A program made the translations under genes and the position numbers. Positions 1,466 through 19,001 of a stretch of 41,520 bases of DNA are shown here, in pieces. The stretch's first letter is position 1. Every line of letters starts with the position of its first letter. The stretch lies in assembly GCA_030652695.1 (NCBI GenBank), contig JAUSQD010000075.1, positions 1 to 41,520 of the forward strand. Reading direction: 5' to 3'. Under the pieces are notes generated by a model. That model made no database searches. It had not been told where the DNA came from and worked only from the letters and a program-made list of their open reading frames with translations. The DNA comes from Actinomycetota bacterium. GTDB lineage: Bacteria; Actinomycetota; Actinomycetes; S36-B12.

Positions 1466-3484
1466 ATGTCTCCTCCCCCTGCGTTCGCATTGGACCCCAT
1501 TGTTCCGCTGCTCATCCATCCTTTGCCCATTTCCCTGCTGTTGGTCGATCCACAATTGCGAGTGCTGTTCGCTGGAGGTCGCCAACTGCGCACCGACGGC
1601 TACGAAAGCGTCAGTTTGACCGGGCAATTGCTGACCGATGTGATGCCGGCAGATTCCCTTGAACTCTTCATCGGGGCCTACCGAGCTGCGTTTCAAGGTG
1701 AAACTTCTGAGTTGGTGTACGACAGCCCTCTTGGTGGCGGGCGATATCACGTCTCGATCCTGCCCTTTTCTGACCCGGTGGGTCAGATCGTGGCTGCGAT
1801 GTCAGTTTCGGTTGATATCTCGCATGTGGAGAACCTTGAGTTCGAACTGGGCCAAGTACGCAAGCTCATCGATTTTGGCAGCGGCATCTTCGAACGGCGA
1901 TCCGGATGGACCACCGATGAGCGCCTCCTTGCGATATGGGGCTTGGAGAGCCTGACGGACACCAACAAGAAGCTGAAAGAACTCATGCTCCCGGCGGATC
2001 GCCCACACGCCGAAGCACTCTGGAAGAGCCTGCGGCAGACGGGTGGGCGAGGCAGTCTGGACTACAGCATTGCGCATGGATTCACCAAGGAGGTTCGTCA
2101 CCTGCGTGGGACGTGGGATGTCAGTTTGGACTCCGACGGTGCAATCGTGCGCGTGCAGTCCACTCACGTTGATCTGACTGAGGTACACCGCATTCGTTCG
2201 GAGACAGATCGTGCCCGCGTCGATGCAGCCCATCAGCGCGAGCAGCTGTTGCGACGAGTGGGCGGAGTCCTGGCCACAACTGCACAGTCCATGGAAGACG
2301 CTGCGCTGGCCACCTATGAACTGGCACTGACCGCGTTTGGGTATGGCTGCGGTTTGCGACTGTTCAGTCCTGACGGTCAGTTGATCGAGCGATCGCTGGT
2401 GGGTCAGGCAGAAGGGGCTCGCACAACTGACCTGAGCCACTGGACTCGATCCAACTTTGACACCGTTGATTCTCTGCCTCCAGTGTTCAAGGAGGCCATC
2501 CGCACCCAGACCTGCCTTAGAGGGCGTAGTGAGGATAGGACCGAGGATCCGCTGGCCTGGCACACAGGCATGCGCTACCTCGCGGCTCCCATTCGCCATC
2601 GAGGTCGCGTCTATGGAGTTCTCAGCGTGGCAAGAGCAGCGCATGAGCCAGACTTCGACGCCTTTGAGATCGATCTCGCCCAATTGATGGCCGACCGTCT
2701 CGGAGCCTTTGCCGAACTCGATTCCGCGCGGGTTGCAATCGACCAGATGGGAGAGCTTCGCGCACGCCTGGGAGATCAACTCCAAGAAGTGAGGGCAGAT
2801 CAGCAGAATCTCATTGTTCAACTGGATCAGACTGAATCTCGCGAGCGTCTCAATCTGGCTGAGGCTCTCCACGACGATCCGCTGCAGATGGTGGTGGCGG
2901 CAATGCTGCAACTGGATGTGTGGCGAAGTCAGCAGCTCTCGGAGGATCCGGCCTTTGAGCGGGTGCAGTCAATGCTGGAGACCGCCGTCGAGCAACTCCG
3001 CATGGTCGTCACGACTCTTACTCCGCCCGATCTCACCGAAGGCCTTGGCCCGGCGCTCAGACATCTCGCAATAGCGACCTTCTTCGGCAGTGCAACCACC
3101 CCGAAGGTGCAGGGGCCTCAGCATGTGCCCTTGGACCCCAAGACCAAAGAGTCCGTGTATCGGATTGTGCGCGAGGCACTGGTGAATGTGCGCAAGCATG
3201 CGCATGCCAAGAACGTGGTTATTGAAATCTCGATCGGCGATGACGAAGTTCGGATCAGCGTCGTTGACGATGGCATTGGTATTCAGCATCAGCCCGCTGC
3301 GCCGGGACATTTGGGCTTGCCCTCAATGCGAGCAAGAGCCGCGTCGGCGCACGCTGATCTCGTGATTGCCAGCAATGTGGGAAAAGGAACAACCGTCGAG
3401 CTCGTGCTTCATCCGCAGCCTCGAACTGTGCGCGCGCAATCATCTGCGCTGAACAGCACGCGCGAGAAAGCAGAAGATCAATAG
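1466..3484 (+). CDS. Cytoplasmic PAS/PAS/GAF sensor histidine kinase, HisKA_3 (NarX/DegS) type
   Basis: H-box ERLNLAEALHDDPLQ; N-box YRIVREALVNVRKHAHA; G1 VVDDGIG; G2 GHLGLPSMRARA; N-terminal PAS (AYRAAFQGE) and GAF (YLAAPIRHRGRVYGVLSV); no clear TM. Confidence 0.9.
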   Translation: MSPPPAFALDPIVPLLIHPLPISLLLVDPQLRVLFAGGRQLRTDGYESVSLTGQLLTDVMPADSLELFIGAYRAAFQGETSELVYDSPLGGGRYHVSILPFSDPVGQIVAAMSVSVDISHVENLEFELGQVRKLIDFGSGIFERRSGWTTDERLLAIWGLESLTDTNKKLKELMLPADRPHAEALWKSLRQTGGRGSLDYSIAHGFTKEVRHLRGTWDVSLDSDGAIVRVQSTHVDLTEVHRIRSETDRARVDAAHQREQLLRRVGGVLATTAQSMEDAALATYELALTAFGYGCGLRLFSPDGQLIERSLVGQAEGARTTDLSHWTRSNFDTVDSLPPVFKEAIRTQTCLRGRSEDRTEDPLAWHTGMRYLAAPIRHRGRVYGVLSVARAAHEPDFDAFEIDLAQLMADRLGAFAELDSARVAIDQMGELRARLGDQLQEVRADQQNLIVQLDQTESRERLNLAEALHDDPLQMVVAAMLQLDVWRSQQLSEDPAFERVQSMLETAVEQLRMVVTTLTPPDLTEGLGPALRHLAIATFFGSATTPKVQGPQHVPLDPKTKESVYRIVREALVNVRKHAHAKNVVIEISIGDDEVRISVVDDGIGIQHQPAAPGHLGLPSMRARAASAHADLVIASNVGKGTTVELVLHPQPRTVRAQSSALNSTREKAEDQ

Positions 3485-3502
3485 GCGTCAGCGGTCAGGC
3501 GG

Positions 3503-6500
3503 CTATTCCGAGGCCGACACTTGCAAAGAAAGCGCCTCCATCACTGTGGCAATGAAGTGCGCATCATCTGTTCGCGTCTTTGTCAGGAAAGTCGTGAGGC
3601 CGGCACTCAAGGCATTCTGCTGAGCTGCGGTGAGATCCTCACCCGTGTAGATCACGATGGGAATATCTGAAGCTTCCAATGGATTTCTTGCATTCAGGAA
3701 TTCGTAGCCATCCATGACCGGCATGTGCAGATCCAAGATGATGAGATCCGGACGGTAGTGCTCGATCACATTGAGGGCTTCCAAGCCATTGCCTGCCTGT
3801 CGCACATCGATCCCTTGAGCTTCCAGCATGGCTGACACCACTTGACGAGTAGCGGCATCGTCTTCGACGACAAGCACCGAGGGACGAAGTCTTGTCTCCA
3901 GTGCGAGTCCGATACTTCTCAGCATTTCCTGGTTGGTGAACGGCTTGCGCAGCCAATTGACGACGACTGGCATAGGCATCTCATTCGGCGCATCCTGCGA
4001 ACCGGACACCACCATGACGCGCACATCCTGGAGACGATCGTCTCCCCTCAAGACTTCGAGAAGATCCAGGCCATGACCATCGGGCAGATTCAAGTCGAGC
4101 AGGATCGCATCAGGCACCATCGTGGCAAGGATCTCTCGCGCTGCGTCAACCGTGCCGGCGCTGCGAACCTGATGGCCTGCGCCTTCCAGCAGAGCCACCA
4201 TCACCAAGGACAGTTGTGGATCATCTTCCACGACTAGCAGAGAGCTCGTGGCCTGTCCCATGGCTCGTGAATTCTCGGCGACAGCCCGAACCACGCTGGT
4301 CATTTCAGGCGAAGCGGCCTGCTCGAGCTGGCCGCTGGAGTCCTGCGAAGCTAAGGGCAGCCGCACGGTGAAGGTCGAACCGACGCCCAGCTCGCTTGTC
4401 ACGCTCACCGTCCCGCCATGCTGCTCGACGATTTCCTGAGTGATCGCCAGCCCGAGGCCTGTGCCACCTTTTGCCCGCGTGGATGTCGAATCGACTTGTG
4501 AGAACCTGGCAAAGACAAAGTCGAGTTTGTCGTCTGGGATGCCATCACCGTGATCGATCACTTCGATGGTGGCGTGCGCAGCACCTGAGGCCTGGAGACG
4601 AACAGTGACGGTGGAGTCCTCATTGGAGAACTTGATTGCATTCGACAGGAGATTGGTGATGACCTGAACGATGCGATCGTGGTCGATCTCGGCTGGGAAC
4701 GCCGATTCCTGGATGTCGGTGGCGAGTGTGATGCTCTGGGCGTTCGCCATTCCGTCCACACCATCGACAGCTTCTACGACAACATCGGACAAGTCCTCGC
4801 GACCGAGCTTCAATTCCAGTTTCCCCGCGCTCATCTTCTCAAGATCAAGCACATCATTGATCAGCCGGACGAGTCGGTCGGTGTTCTGGCTGGCGATTTT
4901 CACCATCGACTTGGCCTTGTCAGGCAATTCGCCCATGGCCCCACCCTCAAGCAGTCCAAGGGAGCCTCGAATCGATGTCAGTGGTGTGCGCAGCTCATGC
5001 GAGACGGTCGAGATGAACTCGTTCTTCACTCGCTCAACTTCTTTGAAGGCGCTCACGTCATGCGACACAACCGACATGAAGCGATCATCCTGGTCACCGG
5101 TCAGCGAGTGGGCAAGCACTGTCTGCTGCACTTCGAGCTCGCCGTCCGCATAGGCAATGACCGACTCCCCTGTCCACATCCCGTCCTGCAATGCGATGGG
5201 AGTTGCCACCTTAAGCAACTCCGAGGCGATCTCATCGCCATAGAGATCAGCCAGACTGCCAGGTGCTTGCGTTACCCCATACCAACCCAAGAGTCGACGC
5301 CAAGATCGGTTGACGTGTTGAACATCGCCCTGAGTGTCGAAGAGGGCGATGAAGTCAGCTGACTCCTCAACGATGTCGACCAATCGTGCGAGCTCAGCAT
5401 CACGCAACTTCTGTTCAGTGATGTCCCGTCCTGTGGCGTAAAGACTCAGAGTCGTCGGATCTGCTTGAGATGTCCACAACACCGTTCGCAATGTGCCGTC
5501 CTTGCAGATCGTCCTTGATTCAAAGCCTTTGGAGACGGCTCCTTCGACTTGCCGAGCCACACTCTCCACTGAGCGTTCTACATCCTGGGGCGCGACAAGC
5601 TTGGTGAAGCGCTGCCCAATGACCTCCTCCTCGCTGTAGCCAAAGGCCTCGACAAACGCCGGATTCACTCTGACGAATCGTCCCTTTGCGTCCACGATGC
5701 AAAGGATGTCCACTGAAAGCCCGAAGAACTGGTCGATGTCCGAGCGCAGTTGCTCCAACTCGGTGACATCGCGCGCAGAGGCATAGATCCGCCCAGTGTC
5801 AGGGTCGAAGCGACCGGCCCAGATGAGCCTGCGGATCGACCCGTCCTTGCACACAGCGCGGGCTTCAATTCCCTCAACGGCCGTGCCGTCCTCCAACAAT
5901 CGCGCCATGGTTCCCATCACAAACTCGCGGTCCTCCGGAAACATGAGTTCCATGATTGAGATACTTTGCAATTCTTCCTCGGTGTAACCCAGGATCTCTT
6001 GAAATGCCGGATTGGCACGGACGAGGCGACCCTGCCCGTCCACAATGCAGAAGAGATCAATGGACAGTCCGAAGAAGGCAGCGCTGTCGGCCTGCGCGGA
6101 CACCAGCGCGGACATATCGAATACCAATCCGGTGAATACGCGCCTGCCTCCCACGCGGAACTCCGAGACACTCATTGCCAGTGGGAAATGCTCGCCACTC
6201 TTGCGCACCCCTTCAATCAGCCGATCCTCTGCACCGCCAACGTTGGACGCCAGCGCAGGGTCGACAGTGAAATGCGACAGGAGAGTCCCGGGAGTGGCCT
6301 GGGGCATGAGCCGGATGAAGTCCGTGCCCTTGACCTCTTCACTTGTGTAACCAAAGATCTGCTGCGCCCCGCGATTGAACTCCTCGATGTTTCCCTCGTC
6401 ATCTGTGGTGATCACACCGAAAGCTGTCGTGTCCACAAATTTGGCGAGAGCCTCGGCTGACTCCAGCGCCTTGGCCTGCATTTCACGTTCCCACTGCGAA

Positions 6501-6976
6501 AGCAGCACTCGTTCAGCGGCCTCAGCCAGCACAGCGAGCATCAGTCGATCGGAGTCGCTGAATTCCCGTGGTGTGATATCAATCACGCAAAGGGTCCCAA
6601 TCAATTGTGCATCTGGACCCTTGAGTGGCTGACCCGCGTAGAAGCGAATGTTCGGATCTCCCAGCACAAGCGGGTTATCGGCAAAGCGCGCGTCCAGCGA
6701 CGCATCGTTGACGATAAAGGCCTGCTCATCTCTGATTGCGTGGGCACAGAATGCGACATCCCTGCTGGTCTCCTGAGCTTGCAGCCCCACTCGGGATTTG
6801 AACCACTGCCTGTCGGTATCGACAAGGGTCACAACCGAGATCGGCGCATCGAAATATCGCGATGCCACCTCGGTGATGCGATCCAGAAAGGGATCGGGTT
6901 CAGTGTCGAGCAGGTTCAACTGGCGTAGTGCAGCTATGCGTGCCTCTTCATTCGAGGGAATCGCAGCAATCTCCAT
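3503..6976 (-). CDS. Hybrid sensor histidine kinase: GAF-PAS x4-HisKA-HATPase-REC-REC
   Basis: GAF (EEARIAALRQLNLLDT...RQWFKS...FCAHAI...IRFYAGQPL); four PAS repeats; H-box VSHELRTPLTSIRG; NLLSNAIKFS; DHGDGIP; GGTGLGLAI; two receivers (LLDLNLPDGHG..KPF; ILDLHMPVMDG). Confidence 0.95.
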   Translation of the reverse strand: MEIAAIPSNEEARIAALRQLNLLDTEPDPFLDRITEVASRYFDAPISVVTLVDTDRQWFKSRVGLQAQETSRDVAFCAHAIRDEQAFIVNDASLDARFADNPLVLGDPNIRFYAGQPLKGPDAQLIGTLCVIDITPREFSDSDRLMLAVLAEAAERVLLSQWEREMQAKALESAEALAKFVDTTAFGVITTDDEGNIEEFNRGAQQIFGYTSEEVKGTDFIRLMPQATPGTLLSHFTVDPALASNVGGAEDRLIEGVRKSGEHFPLAMSVSEFRVGGRRVFTGLVFDMSALVSAQADSAAFFGLSIDLFCIVDGQGRLVRANPAFQEILGYTEEELQSISIMELMFPEDREFVMGTMARLLEDGTAVEGIEARAVCKDGSIRRLIWAGRFDPDTGRIYASARDVTELEQLRSDIDQFFGLSVDILCIVDAKGRFVRVNPAFVEAFGYSEEEVIGQRFTKLVAPQDVERSVESVARQVEGAVSKGFESRTICKDGTLRTVLWTSQADPTTLSLYATGRDITEQKLRDAELARLVDIVEESADFIALFDTQGDVQHVNRSWRRLLGWYGVTQAPGSLADLYGDEIASELLKVATPIALQDGMWTGESVIAYADGELEVQQTVLAHSLTGDQDDRFMSVVSHDVSAFKEVERVKNEFISTVSHELRTPLTSIRGSLGLLEGGAMGELPDKAKSMVKIASQNTDRLVRLINDVLDLEKMSAGKLELKLGREDLSDVVVEAVDGVDGMANAQSITLATDIQESAFPAEIDHDRIVQVITNLLSNAIKFSNEDSTVTVRLQASGAAHATIEVIDHGDGIPDDKLDFVFARFSQVDSTSTRAKGGTGLGLAITQEIVEQHGGTVSVTSELGVGSTFTVRLPLASQDSSGQLEQAASPEMTSVVRAVAENSRAMGQATSSLLVVEDDPQLSLVMVALLEGAGHQVRSAGTVDAAREILATMVPDAILLDLNLPDGHGLDLLEVLRGDDRLQDVRVMVVSGSQDAPNEMPMPVVVNWLRKPFTNQEMLRSIGLALETRLRPSVLVVEDDAATRQVVSAMLEAQGIDVRQAGNGLEALNVIEHYRPDLIILDLHMPVMDGYEFLNARNPLEASDIPIVIYTGEDLTAAQQNALSAGLTTFLTKTRTDDAHFIATVMEALSLQVSASE

Positions 6977-6998
6977 CGGGCTCTCCTAGCTGGACTGG

Positions 6999-7409
6999 TC
7001 AGTTGAGGCTGGCTGCGGCTTGCTTGACCTGCTCATGCAGGCTCATGGGATCAAAGGGCTTGGTGATCACCGCGAGGGCCCCCGCCTCGATGTAGCTCGT
7101 GATTTCGTGCACTTGCGCTCGGGCGGTCATGAAGATCACTGGAATGTGATCAGTTGCTGGATTGGAGCGAAGCTGGCGCAGAGTCTCCATGCCATCCATC
7201 CCAGGCATCATCATGTCCAAGACGATGAGATCCGGAAGGTTCTCTTCTGCCGACTGCAGCCCTTCTGGGCCTGACGATGCGACAAAGGTTTCCAGGCCGC
7301 CGACATCGCGAAGGCTGATCTCTGCCACGAAGCGGATGTCATCCTCATCGTCAACAAGAAGCACCTTGTTAATGATCACGTCGCTGCTCACTTTCTCTGT
7401 CGTTGTCAT
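6999..7409 (-). CDS. Single-domain response regulator (CheY-like)
   Basis: VLLVDDEDDIR...IVLDMMMPGMDG...IFMTA...ITKPFDP; no output domain; start may be GTG 7379. Confidence 0.93.
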   Translation of the reverse strand: MTTTEKVSSDVIINKVLLVDDEDDIRFVAEISLRDVGGLETFVASSGPEGLQSAEENLPDLIVLDMMMPGMDGMETLRQLRSNPATDHIPVIFMTARAQVHEITSYIEAGALAVITKPFDPMSLHEQVKQAAASLN

Positions 7410-7731
7410 CCAGACCTGGGGCAGTCAAGGTCGCGAGTGCCAGATGCAAGGCGGCGAGCTGATCTGCTGCGTCATTCCAGACCTCGTTTTGCACCACATC
7501 GCTCTCGAGCAGTTCCTCGGCCACACCTGCCAACTGTGAACCTTCGTGAAAGCCAAAGGTCCCCAGTAGCCCATGAAGTTTGTGTGCCTCAGCCAGGCCT
7601 TCCTCGCGCGATGTACCCGGCTCCTGGCGCAGTACCTGCACGACACGCTCAATGCGTTCCAGGACGCGAGGTGCACGCTCCTTCCATAGCGGCTGCAGAA
7701 GCTCCGGCACCATCGACTCGTCTATTGCCAT
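7369..7731 (-). CDS. Histidine phosphotransfer (Hpt) domain protein
   Basis: Helical protein with AHKLHGLLGTFG matching the Hpt H-x-L-K-G motif; ATG 7731 lies 7 nt after the GT2 stop. Confidence 0.85.
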   Translation of the reverse strand: MAIDESMVPELLQPLWKERAPRVLERIERVVQVLRQEPGTSREEGLAEAHKLHGLLGTFGFHEGSQLAGVAEELLESDVVQNEVWNDAADQLAALHLALATLTAPGLDDNDRESEQRRDH

Positions 7732-7738
7732 CACTGGA

Positions 7739-9214
7739 TCACCGCTGCTCTGCACGAGGGGGATCAGTCTGGGTCGTCAATGACGTGCTCGTTGCTCCGG
7801 CACCCAGTCCGGTGCGCGTCATCGTGCCCCAGGCTGAATCGGATTTCATAACAGCACTGATGACTCCGCGCATGCGCCACCAAGCGTGCATCTGGCGGAA
7901 GCCAATGTTTTCGGCGAAGGCTGAGATGACCAGAATCACCAGGTTCTTGCGGCCTCGGTACACCGCGCGCGTCACATCGTCGACCACAACCGAAGCCAGC
8001 GAGACCATGATCCCGTAGCCCACAGCCACGAGCAGGAAGAAGATGGCAAATGGCGGATTGAGCTGTCCCATGGCAAGGCCAAGAAGGACAGTCGCGAATC
8101 CAAACAACTCAATGAACGGCCCCAAGGCCTCGAAGAGGAGGAAGTAGGGCATCACAACCAAGCCGATCCGGCCGTAGCGAGGGTTGAGAAACATTCGCCG
8201 ATGCTTGATCAGGAGTTCAGTCAATCCGCGCGACCACCGACGACGTTGTCGTCCCAGCACTTTGACCGTCTCTGGAACTTCCGTCCAATTCACCGTGTCC
8301 GGGACCATGGCCATCCGATATGGCCGCTTGTTGGACAGCATGTGGTGATGCATGCGTGCAACCAGCTCCGCGTCCTCACCTATGCAGTGCAGATCGAATC
8401 CGCCCACCTCGATCACGATGTCCTTGCGGAACATGCCAAATGCGCCCGAAATAATGAGCAAGCCATTGAGTTCAGACCATCCAACGCGGCCGAGCAGGAA
8501 AGCGCGAAGGTACTCCACCACCTGGATTCTTGGCAGCCATGAATCTGGCATTCCTGTTTGCAGAATCTCGCCACGCTCGATGACACAGCCATTGGCCACT
8601 CGGATGACGCCACCTGTGGCGATCATCCGTTCCGGATCGTTTGCGAACGGCTGGGCAACTCGGATGAGTCCGTCGCGATCCATCACGCAGTCGGCATCCA
8701 CGATGCACACCAATTCGTGCGACGCCGTGTTGATACCTACATTGGATGCGTCAGCGCGTCTGCCGGTGTTCACCTTTCGCACGACAACCAAGGACTCGCC
8801 ACCTCTGGGAAGGTGAGTGGACAGCACTTCGCCGATGGTCGGCACAAGATGCTCGACAACCTTCGGCACTTCAACAAGGTCGAACTCTGCGCGCAGCCGT
8901 TCGAATGTCTCGTCTTTTGACCCATCATCCACAACGATGATCTCGAACTTCGGGTAGGCCAGTTCAAGCATGGACCTCACGGACTGCACGATCCCAGCCT
9001 CTTCGTTGAAGGCAGCGACAACGACTGAGACTCCTGGCATGAGGGGGCTTGTCGCAAGCTCATTGAACCCCTGCAGTCCCACTCGTCGGTAGCGAGAAGG
9101 CACCTTGCGAGCCGCGATCAGGATGAATATGAGGTACGAGGTGTTGATCGCAATGAAGTAGAAAAGTACGAAATAGTTGAAAGCAAGGAGCAGTCCCTGC
9201 GCAGCCTCAATCAT
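7739..9214 (-). CDS. Membrane-integrated processive glycosyltransferase family 2 (IcaA/PgaC/cellulose-synthase-like)
   Basis: VVVAAFNEE, IIVVDDGSKD, VDAD (DxD), GEDAEL, QRRRW (QxxRW); one N-terminal and several C-terminal TM helices. Confidence 0.93.
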   Translation of the reverse strand: MIEAAQGLLLAFNYFVLFYFIAINTSYLIFILIAARKVPSRYRRVGLQGFNELATSPLMPGVSVVVAAFNEEAGIVQSVRSMLELAYPKFEIIVVDDGSKDETFERLRAEFDLVEVPKVVEHLVPTIGEVLSTHLPRGGESLVVVRKVNTGRRADASNVGINTASHELVCIVDADCVMDRDGLIRVAQPFANDPERMIATGGVIRVANGCVIERGEILQTGMPDSWLPRIQVVEYLRAFLLGRVGWSELNGLLIISGAFGMFRKDIVIEVGGFDLHCIGEDAELVARMHHHMLSNKRPYRMAMVPDTVNWTEVPETVKVLGRQRRRWSRGLTELLIKHRRMFLNPRYGRIGLVVMPYFLLFEALGPFIELFGFATVLLGLAMGQLNPPFAIFFLLVAVGYGIMVSLASVVVDDVTRAVYRGRKNLVILVISAFAENIGFRQMHAWWRMRGVISAVMKSDSAWGTMTRTGLGAGATSTSLTTQTDPPRAEQR

Positions 9215-10297
9215 CGCGAAGCACCGACTTTTCGCGCTCGCTCAAGTTCCCCAACGCTGATCACTTCTGCGGCATACGAACCCGCTCGTGTTTGAGTTGA
9301 AAGGTGATCCAGCGCTTCGCGCCCGGTTGGGCCAGACTTCTCCAGGGCCGTCGCGGCGGCTCTGACGATGTGTGGATTCTCATCCTGCATCAGGCAGATG
9401 AGCAGACGCAGAGCGTCGTCATCGACAATCGCAGACAGCGCACCTATGGCTGCGATTCGCACTTCTGCGTCGGTATGTGTCGTTATGCAGTGCATCAGAG
9501 GCGCGCGCGCTTTGGCCTCCGATCCTCCCCAGGGCCCTCGCCGCTTCAACGAGCGGAAGTCGCGATTGATCCTCAAGCAAGAGTGCCACCAGATCACTAC
9601 TCGCCATGAAATCATCAAGCAGGCCAAGTACTTTGGCGCACAAAGCACGAGTGTTCGCGTTGTCAGACCGCAATCCGCGACGCAATGCAGGAGCACCCAC
9701 CGGTCCAATGCGCAACAGCGCCGCACCCACGAGGGCTGGTGGCGCTCCGTCTGAATGTTCCAGACTGCTCAAGAGGCAGTCGATGGCCGAAGGGTTGCGC
9801 AGTCGGCCCAAGGCCCGCACCGCCGTGTTGCGCACATCAGGATCGGAATCCTCAACCAATCTGGTCAGTTCACCCGCGTATGCGCTATGCCCCAGTGCGC
9901 CGAGCAGTTCGCATGCCACCCCACGGTCAAGACCTTTGCGGCTGCCAAGGAGCTCAATTGCCCTCGTATCGTATTCAGCCATCAGCAGATGCCGCACGAG
10001 CTCGACCTGAGCTTCGCCCTTGATGGTATTCAGCAATTGGGCTGCAGCCAGCATGGACAGCCGCATCGAAGCTGAGCCTTTCAGCTGCGGCGTTTCCTCT
10101 CCCAGGAGTGGATGCACTCCCGCGATGGCTGTCAGCATGGACTTGCGGGCAGCTGCCAATTGAGGCACACGTCGAGCATTGAGCGCACCCTCTGTAATGC
10201 GATAGACGACCACAAAAGTCAAGAGCAACAGATCAAGGACGACAAGACTGATCGCAACGACCTGAATAACCACAAGTGGAACTACAACCGCGTCCAT
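9211..10297 (-). pseudogene. N-terminally membrane-anchored HEAT/PBS-lyase repeat protein, split by a frameshift at about 9501-9510
   Basis: ORF 9419..10297 has a TM then HEAT repeats (LVEDSDPDVRNTAVRALGRL, LRSDNANTRALCAKVLGLL); repeats continue in another frame (DAEVRIAAIGALSAI, LMQDENPHIVRAAATALEK) to a TGA overlapping the GT2 ATG. Confidence 0.85.
9501..9510. repeat. (GC)5 dinucleotide tract at the HEAT-gene frameshift
   Basis: gcgcgcgcgc; adding one GC unit gives GGC CAA AGC GCG CGC GCG CCT CTG ATG (GQSARAPLM), joining both ORFs. Confidence 0.8.
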
Positions 10298-10322
10298 AGC
10301 GAGTTTACCTATCCGCGAGCGC

Positions 10323-10694
10323 TCATCGTGAGACGCGCAGGAATCGCTCGACGCGAGACTGCAACTCCTGCAAGCTGAATGGCTTCACGATGTAATCGTC
10401 GGCGCCAGCATCAAAACCCTTGCTGACATCGGACTCTTGACCACGTGCAGTCAGGAGAAGAACTGGTATCAGAGAGAACTCCGGATTGGCCTTGATGTTT
10501 CTGCAGACATCAATGCCGTTCATGCGAGGCATCTGAATGTCCAGCAGGATGATGTCGGGACGCTCGGACTCAATTGCCTCCAGACACTCATCGCCATTTG
10601 ATGCCTGCCGAACGGTGTGTCCAACAACGCCGAGCCTCAACGCGACGATGTCGCGGATGTCTTCATCGTCGTCAACGACCAGGACGTTCGCCAT
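10323..10694 (-). CDS. Single-domain response regulator
   Basis: MANVLVVDDDEDIR...IILLDIQMPRMNG...LLLTARG...GADDYIVKPFS; ends right after the receiver domain. Confidence 0.93.
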   Translation of the reverse strand: MANVLVVDDDEDIRDIVALRLGVVGHTVRQASNGDECLEAIESERPDIILLDIQMPRMNGIDVCRNIKANPEFSLIPVLLLTARGQESDVSKGFDAGADDYIVKPFSLQELQSRVERFLRVSR

Positions 10695-10827
10695 CTCAAC
10701 CCCCAGAGCCAGATTCGCGTGCTGCGTTGCGGAGACTCGCCTCAACTACTTTCAGAGTAATGGGGATTACTGCTGCGTGGATGAGGCAAATGCACCATTC
10801 GAGGGGTGAAGAATCTTAAGCCTCAGG

Positions 10828-12465
10828 TCAGTTCAACACGACTTGCGCCACTGCCTGAGCCATGTCCGTAGCCGACGGACTGCTGGCGACGGCAGCAACG
10901 GTAAAACCAAGGGACTCAGCCTGTTCAGCTGTGGTTGGCCCCGAAACAATCACGGGGATTGCTGTCCTACTTCCCAGATGTTGAGCCACTGCGCGCGCGG
11001 CACTGGGTGAACGCAGGATGATTGCGCTGATGTCACCACTGCGAAGCAGGGTGGTGGAGATCGGCTCGGGTCGTACGACGCTTGTCTCGTAGACGACGCC
11101 GTCAGTAATCGTCCACCCACGATTTCTGAGTCCGTCAGGCAGCGCGCGCATCGCGATGCTTCCGTGTGGAAACACCACCGTGCCGCCACCGGTAGGCAGT
11201 TCAGCGAGCAGCCCAACAGCTGAAGGCAACACAGGGATGAGATCGATCGAAACTCCCAGCTCCTGGACGCTTTCCGCGGTCTTGCTGCCGACAACTGCGA
11301 CCTGCATGCCCTTCAGCTTCGCTTCCGCAAGCGCATTTGCCAATCGGTCGCGTCCCACCAGCGAAGCCCAGCTCGGCATGGCGATCTGCGAGGTGACGAC
11401 CAGCCAATCAACACCGTCTTCAAGCTTGGCAAGCAGGACGTCGGCGTTGGCTCGGGAGAGCGAAGTCGACATATTCAAATAAGAGTCGGTAACCGAGCCG
11501 ATCCCAAGTGCCGCGAGGGCCTGCGCATCGGCTTCATTGTCATTTGCCCGGACAAGTAGCACTGGGTTCACATCACTTGCCAGCATCAGCTTGGATGCAG
11601 CGAACAAACCCATGGCGCGGGCGCTGCTGATGTCGCCTATTGCCGCGTTGCGCGTGACTCGGACTCGAGAGTGTTGATGCTCGTCAAAGAGTTCGGCGAT
11701 CAGCGTGAGCTCTTCGCCATCGAAAGTTGCGTATGCACCGGCGGCAGTCGTGCACTCAGCAGAGATGCCAACGAGTACTTCTCGCTCTGCCGCGGTTGTG
11801 AATCGCGCGAGGGGATCCTGCAATTGAGCTACGAGTCGCGCGAGGGGATCGCCTTCGCGACACTCAACGGCGAGTGCTCCTTGGGCCGGCGCTGGAACCA
11901 CGACTTCAGGATCCAGCACTTCACTGATGACATCCGTGCGACCGATGCGGGCAATGCCTGCGTAGGCCAGCACCACCGCATCGACTTCGCCTTCGAGCGC
12001 CTTGCGAATTCGTGAGTCAACATTGCCCCGAATCGGCTCGATCCGCAGATCGGGTCGCTGCGCAAGCAGCATCGCCGAACGGCGCGGAGAGCTCGTTCCT
12101 ATTCGGGCTGCATGAGGCAGAGTGGCAAGAGTGAGACCATCGCGACAGACCAACACGTCACATGGATTCTCCCGTTCGGGCACCGCCGCCAAGACGATCC
12201 CTGGCTCGGGAGCACTGGGCAGGTCCTTGAAGGAGTGGACGATGACATCGACTTCTCCAGCGAGCAGGGCTCGACGAAGGCTTGACACGAACAAGCCGGG
12301 GTTGCCTGGCTGATTCAGCGAAGTGCTCGTGTCATCCCCGTCGGTGCGGATGTGGATTTCCTCCCACGGAAGCCCGGCAATTTCCGAGAGCGCGTTGCCA
12401 ACGGTGGCTGATTGCGTGCGGGCGAGCAGACTTGCCCGCGTGCCAAGTCGGATTGGATTAGCCAC
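10828..12465 (-). CDS. hemC: Hydroxymethylbilane synthase fused to uroporphyrinogen-III synthase (HemC-HemD fusion)
   Basis: IRLGTRASLLARTQ, VHSFKDLP, IGTSSPRR, IRGNVDSR, PAPAQGALAVE; C-terminal HemD (WLVVTSQ, VAVVGSKTA, VVYET, LRSPSAA, SGPTTA); GTG 12465 overlaps the hemA stop. Confidence 0.92.
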   Translation of the reverse strand: MANPIRLGTRASLLARTQSATVGNALSEIAGLPWEEIHIRTDGDDTSTSLNQPGNPGLFVSSLRRALLAGEVDVIVHSFKDLPSAPEPGIVLAAVPERENPCDVLVCRDGLTLATLPHAARIGTSSPRRSAMLLAQRPDLRIEPIRGNVDSRIRKALEGEVDAVVLAYAGIARIGRTDVISEVLDPEVVVPAPAQGALAVECREGDPLARLVAQLQDPLARFTTAAEREVLVGISAECTTAAGAYATFDGEELTLIAELFDEHQHSRVRVTRNAAIGDISSARAMGLFAASKLMLASDVNPVLLVRANDNEADAQALAALGIGSVTDSYLNMSTSLSRANADVLLAKLEDGVDWLVVTSQIAMPSWASLVGRDRLANALAEAKLKGMQVAVVGSKTAESVQELGVSIDLIPVLPSAVGLLAELPTGGGTVVFPHGSIAMRALPDGLRNRGWTITDGVVYETSVVRPEPISTTLLRSGDISAIILRSPSAARAVAQHLGSRTAIPVIVSGPTTAEQAESLGFTVAAVASSPSATDMAQAVAQVVLN

Positions 12466-13717
12466 GGGCGTCGAGGTCGATACCAAAGAGCGTGTGAATC
12501 GCCTTCTGGTAGTCCGCGAAGTCTCCGGTGCGCGCCAGTTCCTGTGCGCGAATTGATGGAGTGTGCAAGATCGTGTTCGAGACGCGATGAAGTGCGCGCG
12601 CTACTTCCTCGGCGGTTTCTGCATCGACTCGGCCGCGGATGCGCTCCATCTCTTCATTGATGATCGACATCACGTGGGTGCGCATCGCAACGACGGCATG
12701 GTCCGCGCTTCGACCCGATTCGGTCATCTCGAACTCAGCAACCGCCTGCAGGACGATGTCCTGAGCTTCAAGGATGGCAGAGGAGTGCTCCCTCGGGGCA
12801 AACTCTCGAATGACTTCAAGATTGATGACGTCTGCCCAGGCGCATTCGGCCACCTCAGGAGAAACATCAGGGGTGAGAGCGAGGTCAATGATCGGAATCA
12901 CTGGCTCATCGCCCGAGCCGCGCAACTCCCGTGCCGCCGACATCACTGCCTGGTCCACTAGGTACTCGGCAGTTCCGCTGCATGCGGCGATCAGCTGCGC
13001 TTCGGCGACAGCCGCAACGAGTTGATCGGCGTCAACGGGTACGAGTTCGCGAGTCTGAGCAAACTGCGCTGCCCGCCCTGAAGATGAGTAGACATGGATG
13101 TCTGCGCACCCACGCTTCTGCAGCGCAGCTGTCACCACCCGTGCATACGAACCAGTGCCAAGGATCAAAGCGCGACGACCTTCCAGAGATCCGTAGCGTT
13201 GTTCTGCGACGTCGAGTCCGACGCTGACAATTGAGCGGCCTGCCGCACCGAGGCCGGTTGAACTCGTCACGGCCTTTGACGTGGCCAGCGCCCGCTGTAG
13301 CAGGCGTTCCAGACTGGGCGACGTTGTCTGCTCAGTTTGAGCAGTGGCAAGAGCTTGCCGAACTTGACCAGCGATTTCATCCTCGCCGACCACCATCGAC
13401 TCCAAGCCAGATGCAACAGAGAACAGGTGCTGACCAACTGCAGTTCCCACGAGCACACGCATCGCGTCGACAACGAAGTCGAGTTCAAGGTGAGCGGCTA
13501 CCGCTACCGAAGCCGTGGTGAGTTCAACGGCATCATGGAAGCGTTCCAAATCGAGGTAGACCTCAAAGCGATTGCACGTGGAAAGCACGACGGCGCCATT
13601 CACATCGGCGCTGGATTGCGTCAGTTTCAGGGCCAGCCCCTCACTTGCGGCCGTGAGCCGGGACACTTCATCCAGGGTGACGTCATGATGGCTCGCGCCG
13701 ACCATGACCATCACCAT
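12458..13717 (-). CDS. hemA: Glutamyl-tRNA reductase
   Basis: GASHH, VVLSTCNRFEVY, HLFSVASGLESMVVGEDEIAGQVR, Rossmann ILGTGSYA. Confidence 0.97.
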   Translation of the reverse strand: MVMVMVGASHHDVTLDEVSRLTAASEGLALKLTQSSADVNGAVVLSTCNRFEVYLDLERFHDAVELTTASVAVAAHLELDFVVDAMRVLVGTAVGQHLFSVASGLESMVVGEDEIAGQVRQALATAQTEQTTSPSLERLLQRALATSKAVTSSTGLGAAGRSIVSVGLDVAEQRYGSLEGRRALILGTGSYARVVTAALQKRGCADIHVYSSSGRAAQFAQTRELVPVDADQLVAAVAEAQLIAACSGTAEYLVDQAVMSAARELRGSGDEPVIPIIDLALTPDVSPEVAECAWADVINLEVIREFAPREHSSAILEAQDIVLQAVAEFEMTESGRSADHAVVAMRTHVMSIINEEMERIRGRVDAETAEEVARALHRVSNTILHTPSIRAQELARTGDFADYQKAIHTLFGIDLDARG

Positions 13718-13793
13718 GCTCTGATTCTAGGGCTGACCTGCCCGAGCGATCTCGCGGAACCATCGTCAGTTGTGCCTCTACTAAGTTCTAGGC
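13718..13793. promoter_or_regulatory. Divergent leaderless promoters for hemA and hemE
   Basis: Minus strand TAGAAT (13724-13729) 6 nt before the hemA ATG; plus strand TAAGTT (13782-13787) 6 nt before the hemE ATG. Confidence 0.65.
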
Positions 13794-14864
13794 ATGACTT
13801 CCCCGGCTGCCCTGCCTGCTGAGCACCCGCTGATGAACGGATCCACCTCAGATTCGGCTTTGATCACGGCATATCGAGGTGAGCGCCCCTCGACTCGGCC
13901 TATTTGGATGATGCGCCAAGCGGGGCGATCCCTGCCCGAGTACCGCGCTCTGCGCGAGGGCACGGCAATGCTGGACTCCTGTCTGCGCCCAGACATGGTG
14001 GCTGAGATCACACTGCAGCCAGTGCGCCGTCACAAGGTCGATGCCGCGATCTTCTTCAGCGACATCGTCATCCCCTTGAAGCTCGCGGGAATCGACGTCG
14101 ACATCGTGGCTGGCGTCGGCCCAGTCATGGGGGAACCGATCCGCAGCGCGGCACGGGTCAAGAATCTGCCAGAACTTGATCCTGCTGCCTTGGCCCCGAT
14201 CATTGAAGCTGTCGGAATTCTGGTCGGCGCACTTGGAAAAGTTCCCCTCATTGGCTTCGCGGGGGCGCCGTTCACTCTGGCCTCATACCTTGTCGAAGGT
14301 CGACCTTCACGGGAGTACTTGCACACCAAGGCACTCATGCGCGAGGAGCCTGAGACTTGGCATGCCTTGCTCGCATGGGTGGCTCGCACGACTGGCACGT
14401 TCCTTCGGACTCAGGCGATGGCCGGGGCTAGCGCTGTGCAGTTGTTCGACTCGTGGGCCGGCGCGCTCACTCTTGAGGAGTACACCACGTTCGTTGCTCC
14501 GCATTCTGCCGCTGTGATGGCGCAGGTTGAAGATCTACCAGTGCCCCGCATCCACTTCGGCACCAAGACCGGGCACTTGCTTGTTGCTATGCGTGATGTT
14601 GGTGCGACGGTGGTTGGCGTCGATCAATTCACCCCACTTGATGTTGCCAACGAAATGCTGGGTGGCACATCTGTGCTGCAAGGCAATATCGATCCGGAGT
14701 TGCTTGCCGGCCCTTGGGATCTCTTGGCTGCCAATGTGCGCGATGTGCTCAAACGCGGATTGAGTGCGCCCGGCCATGTCGTCAATCTTGGGCACGGCGT
14801 TCCGCCTGAGACTGATCCTGATGTGTTGACGCGCATGGTCGCGCTCGTGCACGAAGAAGGCTGA
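13794..14864 (+). CDS. hemE: Uroporphyrinogen decarboxylase
   Basis: PIWMMRQAGRSLPEYR, AAIFFSDI, LIGFAGAPFTLASYLVEG, QLFDSW, NLGHGV. Confidence 0.98.
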   Translation: MTSPAALPAEHPLMNGSTSDSALITAYRGERPSTRPIWMMRQAGRSLPEYRALREGTAMLDSCLRPDMVAEITLQPVRRHKVDAAIFFSDIVIPLKLAGIDVDIVAGVGPVMGEPIRSAARVKNLPELDPAALAPIIEAVGILVGALGKVPLIGFAGAPFTLASYLVEGRPSREYLHTKALMREEPETWHALLAWVARTTGTFLRTQAMAGASAVQLFDSWAGALTLEEYTTFVAPHSAAVMAQVEDLPVPRIHFGTKTGHLLVAMRDVGATVVGVDQFTPLDVANEMLGGTSVLQGNIDPELLAGPWDLLAANVRDVLKRGLSAPGHVVNLGHGVPPETDPDVLTRMVALVHEEG

Positions 14865-14867
14865 CCG

Positions 14868-16238
14868 GTGACTAAGCGACACGACGTCGTCATCGTTGGT
14901 GGTGGAGTTGCGGGATTGGTCGCCGCCCTGGAGGCGTCCCATTGCGGTCGCTCAGTCATGCTCCTTGAAGCCCGTGGTCGACTTGGCGGGGCCGTTCAAG
15001 GAGTCAGCCTCGGTGGCGTGACTGTCGACGTTGGCGCTGAGTCATACGCCATCACCCGTCCCGACACCATCGAGTTGATCGAGCAGTTGGGTTTGACGAG
15101 CCAGACGGTGGAAACCCGCAGATCTGACTCTCGACTCGTGGTGCCGACCGGCATCCTCCCGATGCCGCAGGCATTGCTCGGGATCCCCACTGATCCTCTG
15201 TCGCCCGCAGTAGTGGCGATCATCGGCGAGGAGGCTGCCATAGTTGCGGCTGCTCTGGACGCCGAGCCGGTGCCAGATCAGTGGGATCCGCAATTGACTC
15301 TTGGAGCGCTCGTTCGTAAGCGCTTTGGGGACCAAGTAGCTGACCTCATCACCACGCCTGTAGTCGGCGGCGTACACGCGCTGCACCCCGACCTTGCTGA
15401 AGCAGAGGCGATCAGCCCTGGCATCACGGCCGCGATGATCAGACACGGAGGTCTGGCCAAGGCCGCGGCGGCGATGCGATCGGCATCTGGCATTCCTGGC
15501 TCAGCGGTGCGCGGCTTGCAAGGGGGGATGTCCACCCTTGTCACAGCCTTGGTTGAGGCACTTCACGCCGGCGGAGTGGATGTGCGTACCGACGTGACAG
15601 CGCTGAATGTGAACCGCGAGGGCGCGCAGTGGCTCATCAGCACTGGCAGCGGGAGTTACATCGCAGATGACGTTGTGGTGGCTCTGGACGCCCGCGGTGC
15701 GGCGAAGATATTGCGAGAGGTCACCCAGATTCATGCCCCGCTCGGCCGAATGCGGGTTGGCGACGTCGTTGTCTTTGCGGCCGTTGTGCAATGCACAGCT
15801 CTCGATGAGGATCCCTTGGGCTCCGGTGCCCTGATCGCCCCGAGCGCTCACGGTCTGCATGCCAAAGCCATCACTCATTCCTCCTCGAAATGGGCCTGGG
15901 TTCGTAATGCCTACGGCCCTGGCCGTCACATGATTCGGCTCTCCTACGGGCGTGATGGCGTGATTCAGGAATCCCTGAACGAGCTGCCGGCTATCGCTCA
16001 CGCCGATCTGGAATTTCTGCTCGGCACCGCGATCGCACCTTTCGAGGACAGCTATCTGGCTCGGTGGAATGGATCGCTCCTTGCCCCTCGAGTCGGGCAC
16101 CGGGCAGCTGTCGCGGAACTCCAGGCTGCCTTGGCCGCTACCCCTGGCCTTTCGGTCGCCGTTTCAGGCATGGCAGGCAATGGCTTGGCCGGCACCATTG
16201 GGCAGGCTCGCGCCAGCATCGCGGGAGTGCGAAACTGA
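14868..16238 (+). CDS. hemG: Coproporphyrinogen/protoporphyrinogen oxidase (HemY/CgoX)
   Basis: FAD motif VVIVGGGVAGLVAA...LLEARGRLGG, DVGAESY, GLQGGM, SSSKWAW, RLSYGR; position in hem operon. Confidence 0.92.
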   Translation: MTKRHDVVIVGGGVAGLVAALEASHCGRSVMLLEARGRLGGAVQGVSLGGVTVDVGAESYAITRPDTIELIEQLGLTSQTVETRRSDSRLVVPTGILPMPQALLGIPTDPLSPAVVAIIGEEAAIVAAALDAEPVPDQWDPQLTLGALVRKRFGDQVADLITTPVVGGVHALHPDLAEAEAISPGITAAMIRHGGLAKAAAAMRSASGIPGSAVRGLQGGMSTLVTALVEALHAGGVDVRTDVTALNVNREGAQWLISTGSGSYIADDVVVALDARGAAKILREVTQIHAPLGRMRVGDVVVFAAVVQCTALDEDPLGSGALIAPSAHGLHAKAITHSSSKWAWVRNAYGPGRHMIRLSYGRDGVIQESLNELPAIAHADLEFLLGTAIAPFEDSYLARWNGSLLAPRVGHRAAVAELQAALAATPGLSVAVSGMAGNGLAGTIGQARASIAGVRN

Positions 16239-16241
16239 GGC

Positions 16242-16952
16242 ATGGTCACTTCTGACGTACGAGTCGCTTCAGCGCCCAAGCTCACCGCGCGAGAGGCCAA
16301 CGAGATCATTCGCTATACCTGCTGGACTTCGTTCAAGCGCGTGGGCCAACCAAGCGCTCTCGCAGGTGAAGAACTCGAACAGCTCTTGGCCAACTGGGCT
16401 GAACTGGACATCGTCGTCCGCGGGTTGTACGACATTTCCGGAATGCGCGCCGACGCCGATGTGATGACTTGGATCCACGCTTCGAGTGCGGATGCAATTC
16501 AAAAAGCCCTGAGAGAACTTCGACGCAGCGAGCTCGGCAAGGTCCTTGAAGTGACGTGGTCAGGAATGGCCATGCATCGACCTGCAGAATTCAACAAGTC
16601 TCACGTTCCTTCATTCATGCTGGGCAAGGCCCCGAAGGAATGGGTATCCGTCTACCCCTTTGTGCGCTCATATGAGTGGTATCTGCTGCCGGAGGAAGAG
16701 CGCCGAGAGATGCTCTTCGAACACGGGATGATGGGCCGCGACTACGCCGGCATCCAGTCGAACACCGTTGCTGCATTTGCACTGGGTGACTACGAGTGGG
16801 TGCTTGCCCTGGAGTCCGATGATCTCGACGAGATAGTCGACATGATGCGCACTCTTCGGTCTGCGAAGGCTCGTCTGCATGTACGCGAGGAGGTGCCCTT
16901 CTTCACTGGCCGACGTCTGGAAGCAGCCGAGTGGGTCGACAGCCTTCGATGA
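16242..16952 (+). CDS. hemQ: Coproheme decarboxylase (HemQ/ChdC)
   Basis: RGLYDISGMRADAD, HRPAEFNKSHVP, YPFVRSYEWYLLP, FALGDYEW, EVPFFTGR. Confidence 0.97.
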   Translation: MVTSDVRVASAPKLTAREANEIIRYTCWTSFKRVGQPSALAGEELEQLLANWAELDIVVRGLYDISGMRADADVMTWIHASSADAIQKALRELRRSELGKVLEVTWSGMAMHRPAEFNKSHVPSFMLGKAPKEWVSVYPFVRSYEWYLLPEEERREMLFEHGMMGRDYAGIQSNTVAAFALGDYEWVLALESDDLDEIVDMMRTLRSAKARLHVREEVPFFTGRRLEAAEWVDSLR

Positions 16953-18010
16953 GCTACGACTCAATCCTGCTTGCCTCCTTTGGCGGTCCCGAAGGTCCTG
17001 ACGATGTCATTCCCTTTCTCGAGCGAGTGACACAAGGCCGAGCCATCCCGCCAGAGCGGATTGCTGAGGTAAGCCAGCGCTATCTGCGCTTCGGAGGCAT
17101 CAGCCCTATCAACCAGCAAAATCGCGAGTTGATGAATGCTCTGCATCACGAGCTGATGGATCGCGGAATCGATCTGCCGATCTATTGGGGCAATCGCAAT
17201 TGGGATCCCGATTTCACCGACGCCATCAGGACCCTCGACGAAGACGGTCGCTCAAAAGTGCTCGCCATTGCAACTAGTGCGTACCCGTCATACAGCGGGT
17301 GTCGCCAATACCGGGAGAACATTGCTGCCGCACTCCAAGAAGCTGAGACTCCGAACATCACGGTGGACATGGCGTTCCCATACAGCAATCGACATGGATT
17401 CACTGCCCATGTCATCGAGGTGCTTTCCAATGCACTTGTCTTTCTCGTCAATGACAACCACCTCGAGACGGCAATTGATGTGCTCTTCACGACCCACTCA
17501 TTGCCGAAATCGTCGGCGGACACATCCGGGCCAGCGCCACACACGACCCCGGGGCTCTACATCGAGCAGCATGAGACTGCAATCGCTGAGGTCATGCGAG
17601 TCGTCGGTATCGCAACTGGTTTGAAGCCGCGCAGCCGGTTGGTGTTCCAATCGCGCAGCGGTGCTCCTGGCACTCCGTGGCTCGAACCGGATGTCAACGA
17701 TGCGCTGCATGAGATTGCAGCCGCAGGTCAGACAACGGCGGTGGTGCTCGTGCCCATTGGATTCGTCAGCGATCACATGGAAGTGATGTGGGATCTGGAC
17801 AACGAGGCCATGGCCACTGCCGAGGAGCTGAATCTGGCGTGCGTGCGCATCCCCACGCCAGGTGTGTCGCCGGCTTTCGTCAGCGCACTGGCTGACGTGA
17901 TCGAGGATGCGCGTCTGGGCGAGCCCACACGCACCGACCTCATCGGCCTCTGCTCTGGCACGTGCTGCCCCAACCCCCGATCCGAATTGCCGGCGATCCC
18001 CGGGGTCTAG
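16949..18010 (+). CDS. hemH: Coproporphyrin ferrochelatase (HemH/CpfC) with [2Fe-2S] Cys tail
   Basis: [46 protein letters not shown]...[15 protein letters not shown]-terminal CSGTCC; ATGA overlap with hemQ. Confidence 0.96.
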
Positions 18011-18023
18011 GCTCGCCTGCATC

Positions 18024-18998: not shown

Positions 18999-19001
18999 CA
19001 G

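Follow-up and report, generated by a model that had tools for sequence, protein, structure and literature searches.

A putative receiver-gated exopolysaccharide synthase module with a frameshifted HEAT-repeat partner gene on an Actinomycetota contig

The window analyzed here is a 41,520-nt stretch of contig JAUSQD010000075.1, from an Actinomycetota bacterium of the S36-B12 lineage (assembly GCA_030652695.1), and the locus of interest within it comprises six genes encoding a single-domain receiver (REC1), a transmembrane (TM) protein with HEAT repeats, a family-2 glycosyltransferase (GT2), a histidine phosphotransfer protein (Hpt), a second single-domain receiver (REC2), and a hybrid histidine kinase (Table 1). 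An initial annotation, made from the sequence alone, had described these as six co-directional genes with overlaps or short gaps, and the open reading frames (ORFs), Pfam matches, and junctions (-41 to +25 nt) agree with that description. The REC1 and HEAT genes are 25 nt apart, the 3′ frame of the HEAT gene overlaps the GT2 gene by 4 nt, and the latter overlaps the Hpt gene by 17 nt (or is separated from its next ATG by 7 nt); the Hpt and REC2 genes overlap by 41 nt, and REC2 is followed by the kinase gene after 22 nt.

Table 1. Features of the six-gene locus and of the repeat tract within its HEAT gene (positions in the window).
Feature	Position	Strand	Evidence or remark
REC1, single-domain receiver adjoining the HEAT gene	10323-10694 (ORF open to 10745)	-	Pfam Response_reg 5.8e-32
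TM-HEAT partner, 5′ part, 292-aa ORF	9419-10297	-	Pfam HEAT_2 1.3e-18; TM residues 13-31
TM-HEAT partner, 3′ part, last ~95 residues, +1 frame	9211-9500	-	HEAT_2 2e-11, Arm 6.7e-8
(GC)5 run at the HEAT frameshift point	9501-9510		sole GCGCGCGCGC in the 41.5-kb window
GT2, processive family-2 glycosyltransferase (synthase-translocase), 491 aa	7739-9214	-	Glyco_tranf_2_3 2e-21, Chitin_synth_2 5.3e-10
Hpt phosphotransfer protein	7369-7755	-	Pfam Hpt 1e-8, 35.7 bits vs cut-off 24.6
REC2, second single-domain receiver, 136 aa	6999-7409	-	Response_reg 1.2e-27
Hybrid histidine kinase, 1157 aa	3503-6976	-	GAF, 4 PAS, HisKA 1.6e-19, HATPase_c 4.1e-32, Response_reg 1.9e-38 (two stretches)

The REC1 ORF extends back to a TTG at 10745, giving a length of 123-140 aa depending on the start; the ATG at 10694, which has GGAGTGGAG on its 5′ side, is the likelier start. 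According to a hydropathy scan, the HEAT protein has one N-terminal TM helix, while TM segments lie at either end of GT2 (residues 5-38 and 350-407), and the same scan detected no TM segment in the kinase, Hpt, REC1, or REC2. Because the kinase is soluble, the cue to which it responds would be cytoplasmic. The initial count of four receivers and one Hpt, with no helix-turn-helix (HTH) or enzymatic output domain, was reproduced with Pfam: none of the six genes gave a match to an HTH, PilZ, or enzymatic output domain at E ≤ 0.01. REC1 and REC2 match only residues ~1-122 of the PhoB-type regulator models of NCBIfam, which are 220-230 residues long, and score far below their cut-offs. A scan of positions 3300-11000 for promoters and terminators returned one promoter-like and one terminator-like site, fewer than the shuffle means of 2.1 and 5.2, respectively, and is no guide to operon boundaries.

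The motifs D97, D173xD175, E280-D281, and Q323-R-R-R-W327 of GT2 are invariant in 63 aligned sequences, and Pfam found no PilZ tail, both as initially described. The AlphaFold2 (AF2) model of the protein (predicted local distance difference test score [pLDDT] 89.8; predicted TM-score [pTM] 0.88) was compared with known structures using Foldseek: hyaluronan and chitin synthases take the first 13 places, ahead of BcsA (E 1e-14 to 1e-11, TM-score 0.5-0.62), and the best whole-length matches are the Chlorella-virus and Xenopus hyaluronan synthases, the yeast and Candida chitin synthases, and BcsA. By motifs and fold, GT2 belongs to the class of processive membrane-embedded synthases. Among curated families the best match is PgaC_IcaA (TIGR03937), which scores 121 bits where the equivalog cut-off is 422.3; NodC (54 bits) and CelA (48 bits, cut-off 699) also fall far below their cut-offs. 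We rejected an assignment as a PgaC/IcaA synthase of poly-N-acetylglucosamine (PNAG) on this score and on the absence of PgaD/IcaD or PgaB/IcaB deacetylase genes among the neighbors, and an assignment as a BcsA cellulose synthase on the absence of PilZ (E ≤ 0.01) and on the CelA score. Our guess, by analogy, is that the product would be a polymer of N-acetylhexosamine (HexNAc), because the QRRRW motif is chitin-synthase-like and members of a sister clade are fused to a deacetylase.

In PgaCD and IcaAD, the membrane GT2 synthase requires a small partner encoded alongside it, and its activity is switched post-translationally from the cytoplasmic side; the standard examples of enzyme-level control by cyclic di-GMP (c-di-GMP) are cellulose, PNAG, alginate, and Pel. 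The locus resembles PgaCD/IcaAD in that the GT2 has a membrane partner encoded by the adjacent gene, and in the identity of its best-scoring curated family, but the partner is a TM-HEAT solenoid of ~360 aa rather than PgaD/IcaD, there is no nearby deacetylase or porin gene, and a phosphorelay with its receiver, not c-di-GMP, is the proposed input. With BcsA-BcsB it shares a fold class (4p00 and 5ej1, TM-score 0.53-0.57) and the cytoplasmic allosteric switch on the synthase that we propose; it differs in lacking both PilZ and BcsB, and the fold matches are only 15-18% identical. The hyaluronan and chitin synthases (7sp8, TM-score 0.62; 8smn, 0.59; Chs1, 0.51-0.53) share the QRRRW motif and, in the case of class I hyaluronan synthases and the chitin synthases, build chains that contain HexNAc and move them across the membrane with no separate exporter, whereas they are only 13-18% identical to GT2 and act alone or as dimers, with neither HEAT partner nor receiver. 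The module falls within the synthase-dependent exopolysaccharide systems, as a variant and not as a category of its own.

Relatives of GT2 are numerous (7745 proteins at E ≤ 1e-20 among 8000 candidates scored). For gene context, 80 loci from species-representative genomes and 59 from metagenomes were fetched and searched in six frames with the window proteins and with a hidden Markov model (HMM) built from 14 HEAT partners. A GT2 match was present in 137 loci, 60 of which had ≥34% identity over ≥300 aa and formed 50 clusters at 90% identity; the other 77 were excluded before linkage was counted. The initial annotation had proposed that a phosphorylated receiver docks on the HEAT scaffold and switches the synthase on, and had named the recurrence of the REC-HEAT-GT2 linkage in other genomes as one point on which this proposal would turn. 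The linkage does recur, in several phyla: a TM-HEAT ORF lies directly upstream and ends at the GT2 start in all 37 clusters whose fetched DNA reaches ≥1 kb upstream, and a receiver gene lies beside the HEAT gene in 21 of the 34 clusters with ≥1.7 kb upstream (19 on the same strand, 2 divergent). Of the 15 middle genes scanned, 14 were confirmed as HEAT_2 by Pfam; the remaining one, from a Bacteroidales locus (L019), nevertheless matches the HEAT HMM at 2e-73. Carriers include Actinomycetota (Flexivirga, Geodermatophilus, Aeromicrobium, and Ilumatobacteraceae), Acidobacteriota, Bacteroidota (Polaribacter and Flavobacterium), Bacilli (Sporosarcina and Jeotgalibacillus), and Clostridia. The distribution of GT2 orthologs is patchy: at E ≤ 1e-70 they occur in 24 of 148 high-quality genomes sampled evenly across the phylum, and a GT2 of ~40% identity was found in only three genomes among 40 relatives.

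Most of the 77 excluded loci encode GH18/deacetylase-GT2 fusions of the PNAG type (23-33% identical) without a HEAT gene; six are full-length at 26-34% identity with a HEAT gene present (L023, L024, L031, L033, L128, and L076), and three are truncated matches with a HEAT gene (L141, L143, and L145). A kinase gene is present within the fetched DNA at 12 of the 21 receiver-bearing loci. Because the kinases differ in kind and position between lineages, the conserved unit is REC/HEAT/GT2 only, and the six-gene layout of the window is a lineage-specific elaboration.

Other lineages surround the pair with other genes. Flavobacteria loci additionally encode a divergent Hpt, a sulfatase-like/TPR protein, and a YaiO-type barrel/TPR protein. 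In Bacteroidota more generally (L020, L023, and L024 of Polaribacter and Flavobacterium; P0228-P0336), GT2 is followed by or fused to two further parts, one sulfatase-like (of the LtaS/BcsG kind) and the other a YaiO-type barrel with TPRs, as in the 1145-aa proteins of Chryseobacterium; these partners hint at polymer modification and export across the outer membrane. In the Clostridia-type loci (L028-L032), a gene for a CotH kinase-like protein and one for a ~707-aa protein, the latter with no Pfam or NCBIfam match, precede the HEAT-GT2 pair.

HEAT repeats and GT2 are also found within one protein: at least 15 such fusions occur among the 120 longer relatives listed, the HEAT region is N-terminal in all four fusions rescanned, matching the gene order, and two genomes of the same genus as the window (G002, contig 100, and G008) encode HEAT-GT2 as single ORFs of 895 and 960-966 aa, respectively. 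The AF2 model of the 960-aa fusion (pLDDT 84.6, pTM 0.81) consists of a TM helix, the solenoid, two helices, and GT2; the two helices would place solenoid and GT2 on the same, cytoplasmic, side of the membrane. A 4-nt start overlap was counted at 10/21 REC-to-HEAT and 9/21 HEAT-to-GT2 junctions, and both counts lean high since the heuristic chooses the start nearest to a 4-nt overlap. PDB sequence searches identified no solved structure of a member of the GT2 or HEAT family, and the HEAT domain looks like a generic array of PBS-type repeats, as in alphaRep designs. Column conservation within the HEAT family picks out the structural repeat residues only, with no distinct docking patch. In three-chain complex predictions for the trio of Flexivirga alba NBRC 107580 (L014) with per-chain alignments, in which the receiver was scored as partner, the native trio gave 0.72, 0.70, and 0.68, and unrelated proteins in place of the receiver gave 0.00 and 0.00, but an unrelated protein in place of GT2 still gave 0.57, so that the margin of 0.20 was not reached and the scores count neither for nor against binding. 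Two other proteins were set aside: the 445-aa REC-HEAT fusion P0213, with a weak match to the HEAT partner (E 4e-6) and no gene context available, and P0227 (Hpt/CheA-like/GT2/aldo-keto reductase), which may be a gene-calling chimera. Taken together, the conserved linkage and the fusions support REC/HEAT/GT2 as a putative functional unit.

How the receiver would engage this unit can be read in two ways. It could act directly on GT2, with the HEAT protein as a structural co-subunit for stability or translocation (comparable to PgaD, IcaD, or BcsB) rather than a docking platform. HEAT and GT2 do occur as pairs with no receiver in 13 of the 34 assessable loci, and as fusions; because of these receiver-free pairs and fusions, the primary role of the HEAT protein would be with the synthase and independent of REC. 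However, the receiver gene adjoins the HEAT gene and not the GT2 gene, overlapping the HEAT start by 4 nt in the 10 loci noted above; where the upstream protein has several domains, it is the receiver that lies closest to the HEAT gene; and a protein of this repeat type has a place in the CheY interaction network of Halobacterium. The HEAT_PBS protein OE2401F is one of three proteins reported to interact with CheY, CheD, CheC2, and flagellar accessory proteins, and it is required for motor switching (PMC2666748). OE2401F thereby resembles the window protein as a PBS-type HEAT protein that relays a signal from a CheY network to a membrane machine; it differs as a soluble component of an archaeal motility switch with no glycosyltransferase, and the likeness is one of description (PMC2666748). 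On balance we regard direct action on GT2 as unlikely, and favor a receiver that works on the HEAT-GT2 complex.

The receivers of the conserved unit form a coherent group. In all 21 loci, the HEAT-adjacent receiver is closer to REC1 than to REC2, and the acceptor Asp, the Lys, and the Pro that follows it are invariant in all 23 aligned HEAT-adjacent receivers (REC1 and 22 others). By reading of the sequences, REC2 and both kinase receivers retain the DD, D, T/S, and K residues. Hpt carries AHKLHG at the expected place, with the His that, by the usual motif, would be phospho-accepting. By analogy with multistep phosphorelays, phosphate would pass from His to Asp, to His of Hpt, and on to Asp of REC1 and REC2. 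The window's arrangement recurs on one metagenome contig (L093), where a GT2 86% identical to that of the window is followed in the same order by Hpt (43% identity; Pfam Hpt 8.2e-8), REC2 (76%), and a 1185-aa kinase (58% over 1152 aa); this contig begins inside GT2, and any HEAT gene would lie outside its DNA.

Where the protein encoded upstream of the HEAT gene has several domains, the receiver is the C-terminal one and adjoins the HEAT gene. Input domains are not usually placed last in this way, and the position is consistent with a domain that faces the synthase. Examples are a 542-aa Hpt-GGDEF-REC protein in Jeotgalibacillus salarius (L026, 5297-6925), upstream of HEAT, which combines phosphorelay and c-di-GMP parts in one protein, and, in the same-genus genome G008 (L155, 4929-9838), a 676-aa protein with ODP (di-iron), GGDEF, and receiver domains and Glu at the acceptor position, the stop codon of its gene overlapping the start of the 960-aa HEAT-GT2 fusion. 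Two further relatives (P0220 and P0222, ~981-986 aa) are GT2 proteins with a C-terminal GGDEF domain.

Single-domain receivers often serve as phosphate sinks. REC1 and REC2 could on this basis be sinks or connectors, with the output of the relay being transcriptional through an unlinked DNA-binding regulator and the synteny reflecting co-expression. The genome, at 89.6% completeness and in 199 contigs, leaves room for an unlinked partner, and the second sensor kinase of the window (1466-3484) likewise has no adjacent regulator. On the other side, 9 of the 21 loci with a receiver beside HEAT-GT2 have no kinase within 8 kb, the receiver recurs across phyla with differing kinases, and a sink would be expected to accompany the kinase and not the synthase; moreover, the G008 receiver, with Glu at its acceptor position and fused to a sensor, cannot be a sink. 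We consider a transcriptional output improbable, the least likely of the alternatives weighed here, and post-translational gating by the phosphorylated receiver remains the best-supported hypothesis.

Although the domains of the TM-HEAT gene are as initially annotated, the gene is not intact in the window, a frameshift having been overlooked. The 292-aa ORF departs from the family alignment after “...ALGRIGGQSARA”, and its final ~24 codons are out of frame and match nothing up to a premature stop at 9419. A second frame (9211-9726) is open for ~95 codons past the switch, can be aligned with the last third of the intact proteins, and has a stop codon that overlaps the GT2 start (ATGA). When the two pieces are aligned with P0122 and P0123, the nearest relatives with an intact gene (363 aa, 57% identical), homology follows the first frame until “...RIGGQSARA” and the second from “...ARAPLMHC...” to the end. 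The switch coincides with a (GC)5 run (Table 1), and, as we read the alignment, the addition of one GC unit would restore gap-free register with P0122 and P0123. Such a run is present once in the window against 0.30 expected (at least one in 28 of 100 shuffles), and the 2.16-Mb genome has 17 five-unit GC runs including this one, and none longer. A loss of 2 nt from a (GC)n run would have truncated the HEAT partner, removing its last ~95 residues, and translation of GT2 would be uncoupled from that of the HEAT gene, with ribosomes stopping ~200 nt ahead of the GT2 start.

The allele was checked in assembled contigs of two sequencing runs: in run X1, probably from the source sample, a 31.8-kb contig is identical across 8800-10800 with no indel, and in run X2, from another study, a 254-nt contig spanning 9365-9618 has two substitutions and no gap; runs X3 and X4 had no coverage at the site. 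We rejected assembly error as the source of the frameshift, since the identical allele is found in a contig from a second study, and programmed +1 frameshifting, since the site has neither a stop codon nor a known slippery context. In this genome, then, the module is probably inactive or impaired, and the circuit as drawn in the initial annotation is probably not working here.

It follows that the cluster in this organism could be a recently inactivated remnant, which would be compatible with receiver gating in the family at large. The recurrence of the frameshift in contigs from two studies and the patchiness of the orthologs point that way, while the intactness of all other genes, with catalytic and acceptor residues in place, points the other; assembled contigs, in addition, are blind to minority alleles with an intact run. 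Because the 3′ HEAT frame still runs open for its ~95 codons to the ATGA overlap, the lesion would be recent or tolerated. We see inactivation as a serious possibility for this copy, with the odds nonetheless somewhat against it.

We give a probability of about 0.55 to the reading that the window holds one copy of a widespread, unnamed exopolysaccharide module of the synthase type, in which phosphorylated REC1 acts post-translationally on the HEAT-GT2 complex. The core would be a processive membrane GT2 with an obligatory, membrane-anchored HEAT-repeat partner: GT2 would polymerize a sugar chain and thread the polymer across the membrane, and the HEAT solenoid would sit next to the catalytic domain on the cytoplasmic side. 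A phosphorylatable receiver, encoded just upstream of the HEAT gene and often translationally coupled to it, would be the third, frequent component. In the window, the soluble GAF/PAS hybrid kinase would detect a cytoplasmic cue and pass phosphate from its His via the kinase receiver(s) and Hpt to REC1, with REC2 as a second acceptor, either sink or branch. Phosphorylated REC1 would then work on the HEAT-GT2 complex, not on DNA, as a counterpart of the c-di-GMP receptors in Pga, Bcs, Alg, and Pel. We infer that phosphorylated REC1 binds HEAT or GT2, and that its effect is activation rather than inhibition.

Several observations count against this interpretation. Among the 34 assessable clusters, the 13 with no adjacent receiver (one of which has a receiver and a kinase downstream) suggest that the synthase can work without REC and that the receiver is an add-on; all five Clostridia-type loci are of this kind, with the CotH kinase-like and ~707-aa proteins in place of a receiver. 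The kinase and Hpt arrangements vary by lineage, the six-gene layout being common only to the window and its close relative L093. Some relatives tie the module to GGDEF domains, and c-di-GMP may act in part of the family. In the window itself the HEAT gene is broken, and this copy may be a decaying remnant. Finally, binding, phosphotransfer, and polymer are predictions, made from sequence, for every member of the family.

A broader proposal is more speculative. Receiver phosphorylation read by a membrane-anchored HEAT adaptor might be a general, c-di-GMP-independent gate of processive synthases in at least five phyla. The window would show its most complete form, a single operon encoding the sensor kinase, Hpt, both receivers, the adaptor, and the synthase, and the circuit might also be toggled by (GC)n slippage in the adaptor gene. 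We advance this only tentatively and would not bet on it.

Our full-text literature searches, from whose coverage subscription journals are mostly absent, found no description of a receiver/HEAT/GT2 synthase module. The initial claim that no characterized system is wired in this way therefore stands for the module as a whole, but not for its principle, since control of an enzyme by a receiver has been published. According to that report, phosphorylated EpsW, a single-domain receiver of Myxococcus xanthus, stimulates the phosphoglycosyl transferase EpsZ post-translationally (PMC12802240, mBio 2025). The parallel lies in a single-domain receiver, fed by a signaling system, that contacts a biosynthetic enzyme and activates exopolysaccharide synthesis post-translationally; the differences are that EpsZ, a monotopic phosphoglycosyl transferase, belongs to a Wzx/Wzy pathway, that the input is chemosensory, and that neither a HEAT adaptor nor a processive synthase takes part (PMC12802240). 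The resemblance of the window module to EpsW-EpsZ is one of mechanism only, and no gene for a large monotopic phosphoglycosyl transferase of the EpsZ type was identified in 3503-10745 or its flanks.

If the proposed gating is correct, this class of synthase would have another switch besides that by c-di-GMP, one based on phosphorylation, and two-component signaling would be tied directly to matrix production without transcription. The REC/HEAT/GT2 trio is common, being found in Bacteroidota and Bacilli in addition to the Actinomycetota orthologs counted above, and appears to be unstudied. Cultured carriers (Flexivirga alba, Polaribacter vadi, Flavobacterium, Sporosarcina luteola, and Jeotgalibacillus salarius) make the trio open to direct testing.

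The six-gene locus is flanked by ettA, by the second kinase gene, and by heme-synthesis genes. Annotation of the flanking genes revealed no deacetylase, hydrolase, or exporter gene, in keeping with the initial annotation. The second sensor kinase (PAS, PAS, GAF, HisKA_3, and HATPase_c; 1466-3484, + strand) is convergent with the hybrid kinase across an 18-nt gap; no LuxR/NarL-type regulator is encoded beside it, and the ORF upstream of it (531-1292) matched no Pfam or NCBIfam family. Directly beside the module on the other side (10828-20294) are genes for coproporphyrin-dependent heme synthesis, namely a fused hemC/hemD (552 aa), hemA, hemE, a protoporphyrinogen-oxidase-like gene, HemQ_actino, hemB, and hemL. 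Farther away, ~19 kb from the synthase, the window encodes a 258-aa GGDEF protein (diguanylate cyclase; 29604-30380, - strand), which indicates that the organism has c-di-GMP signaling.

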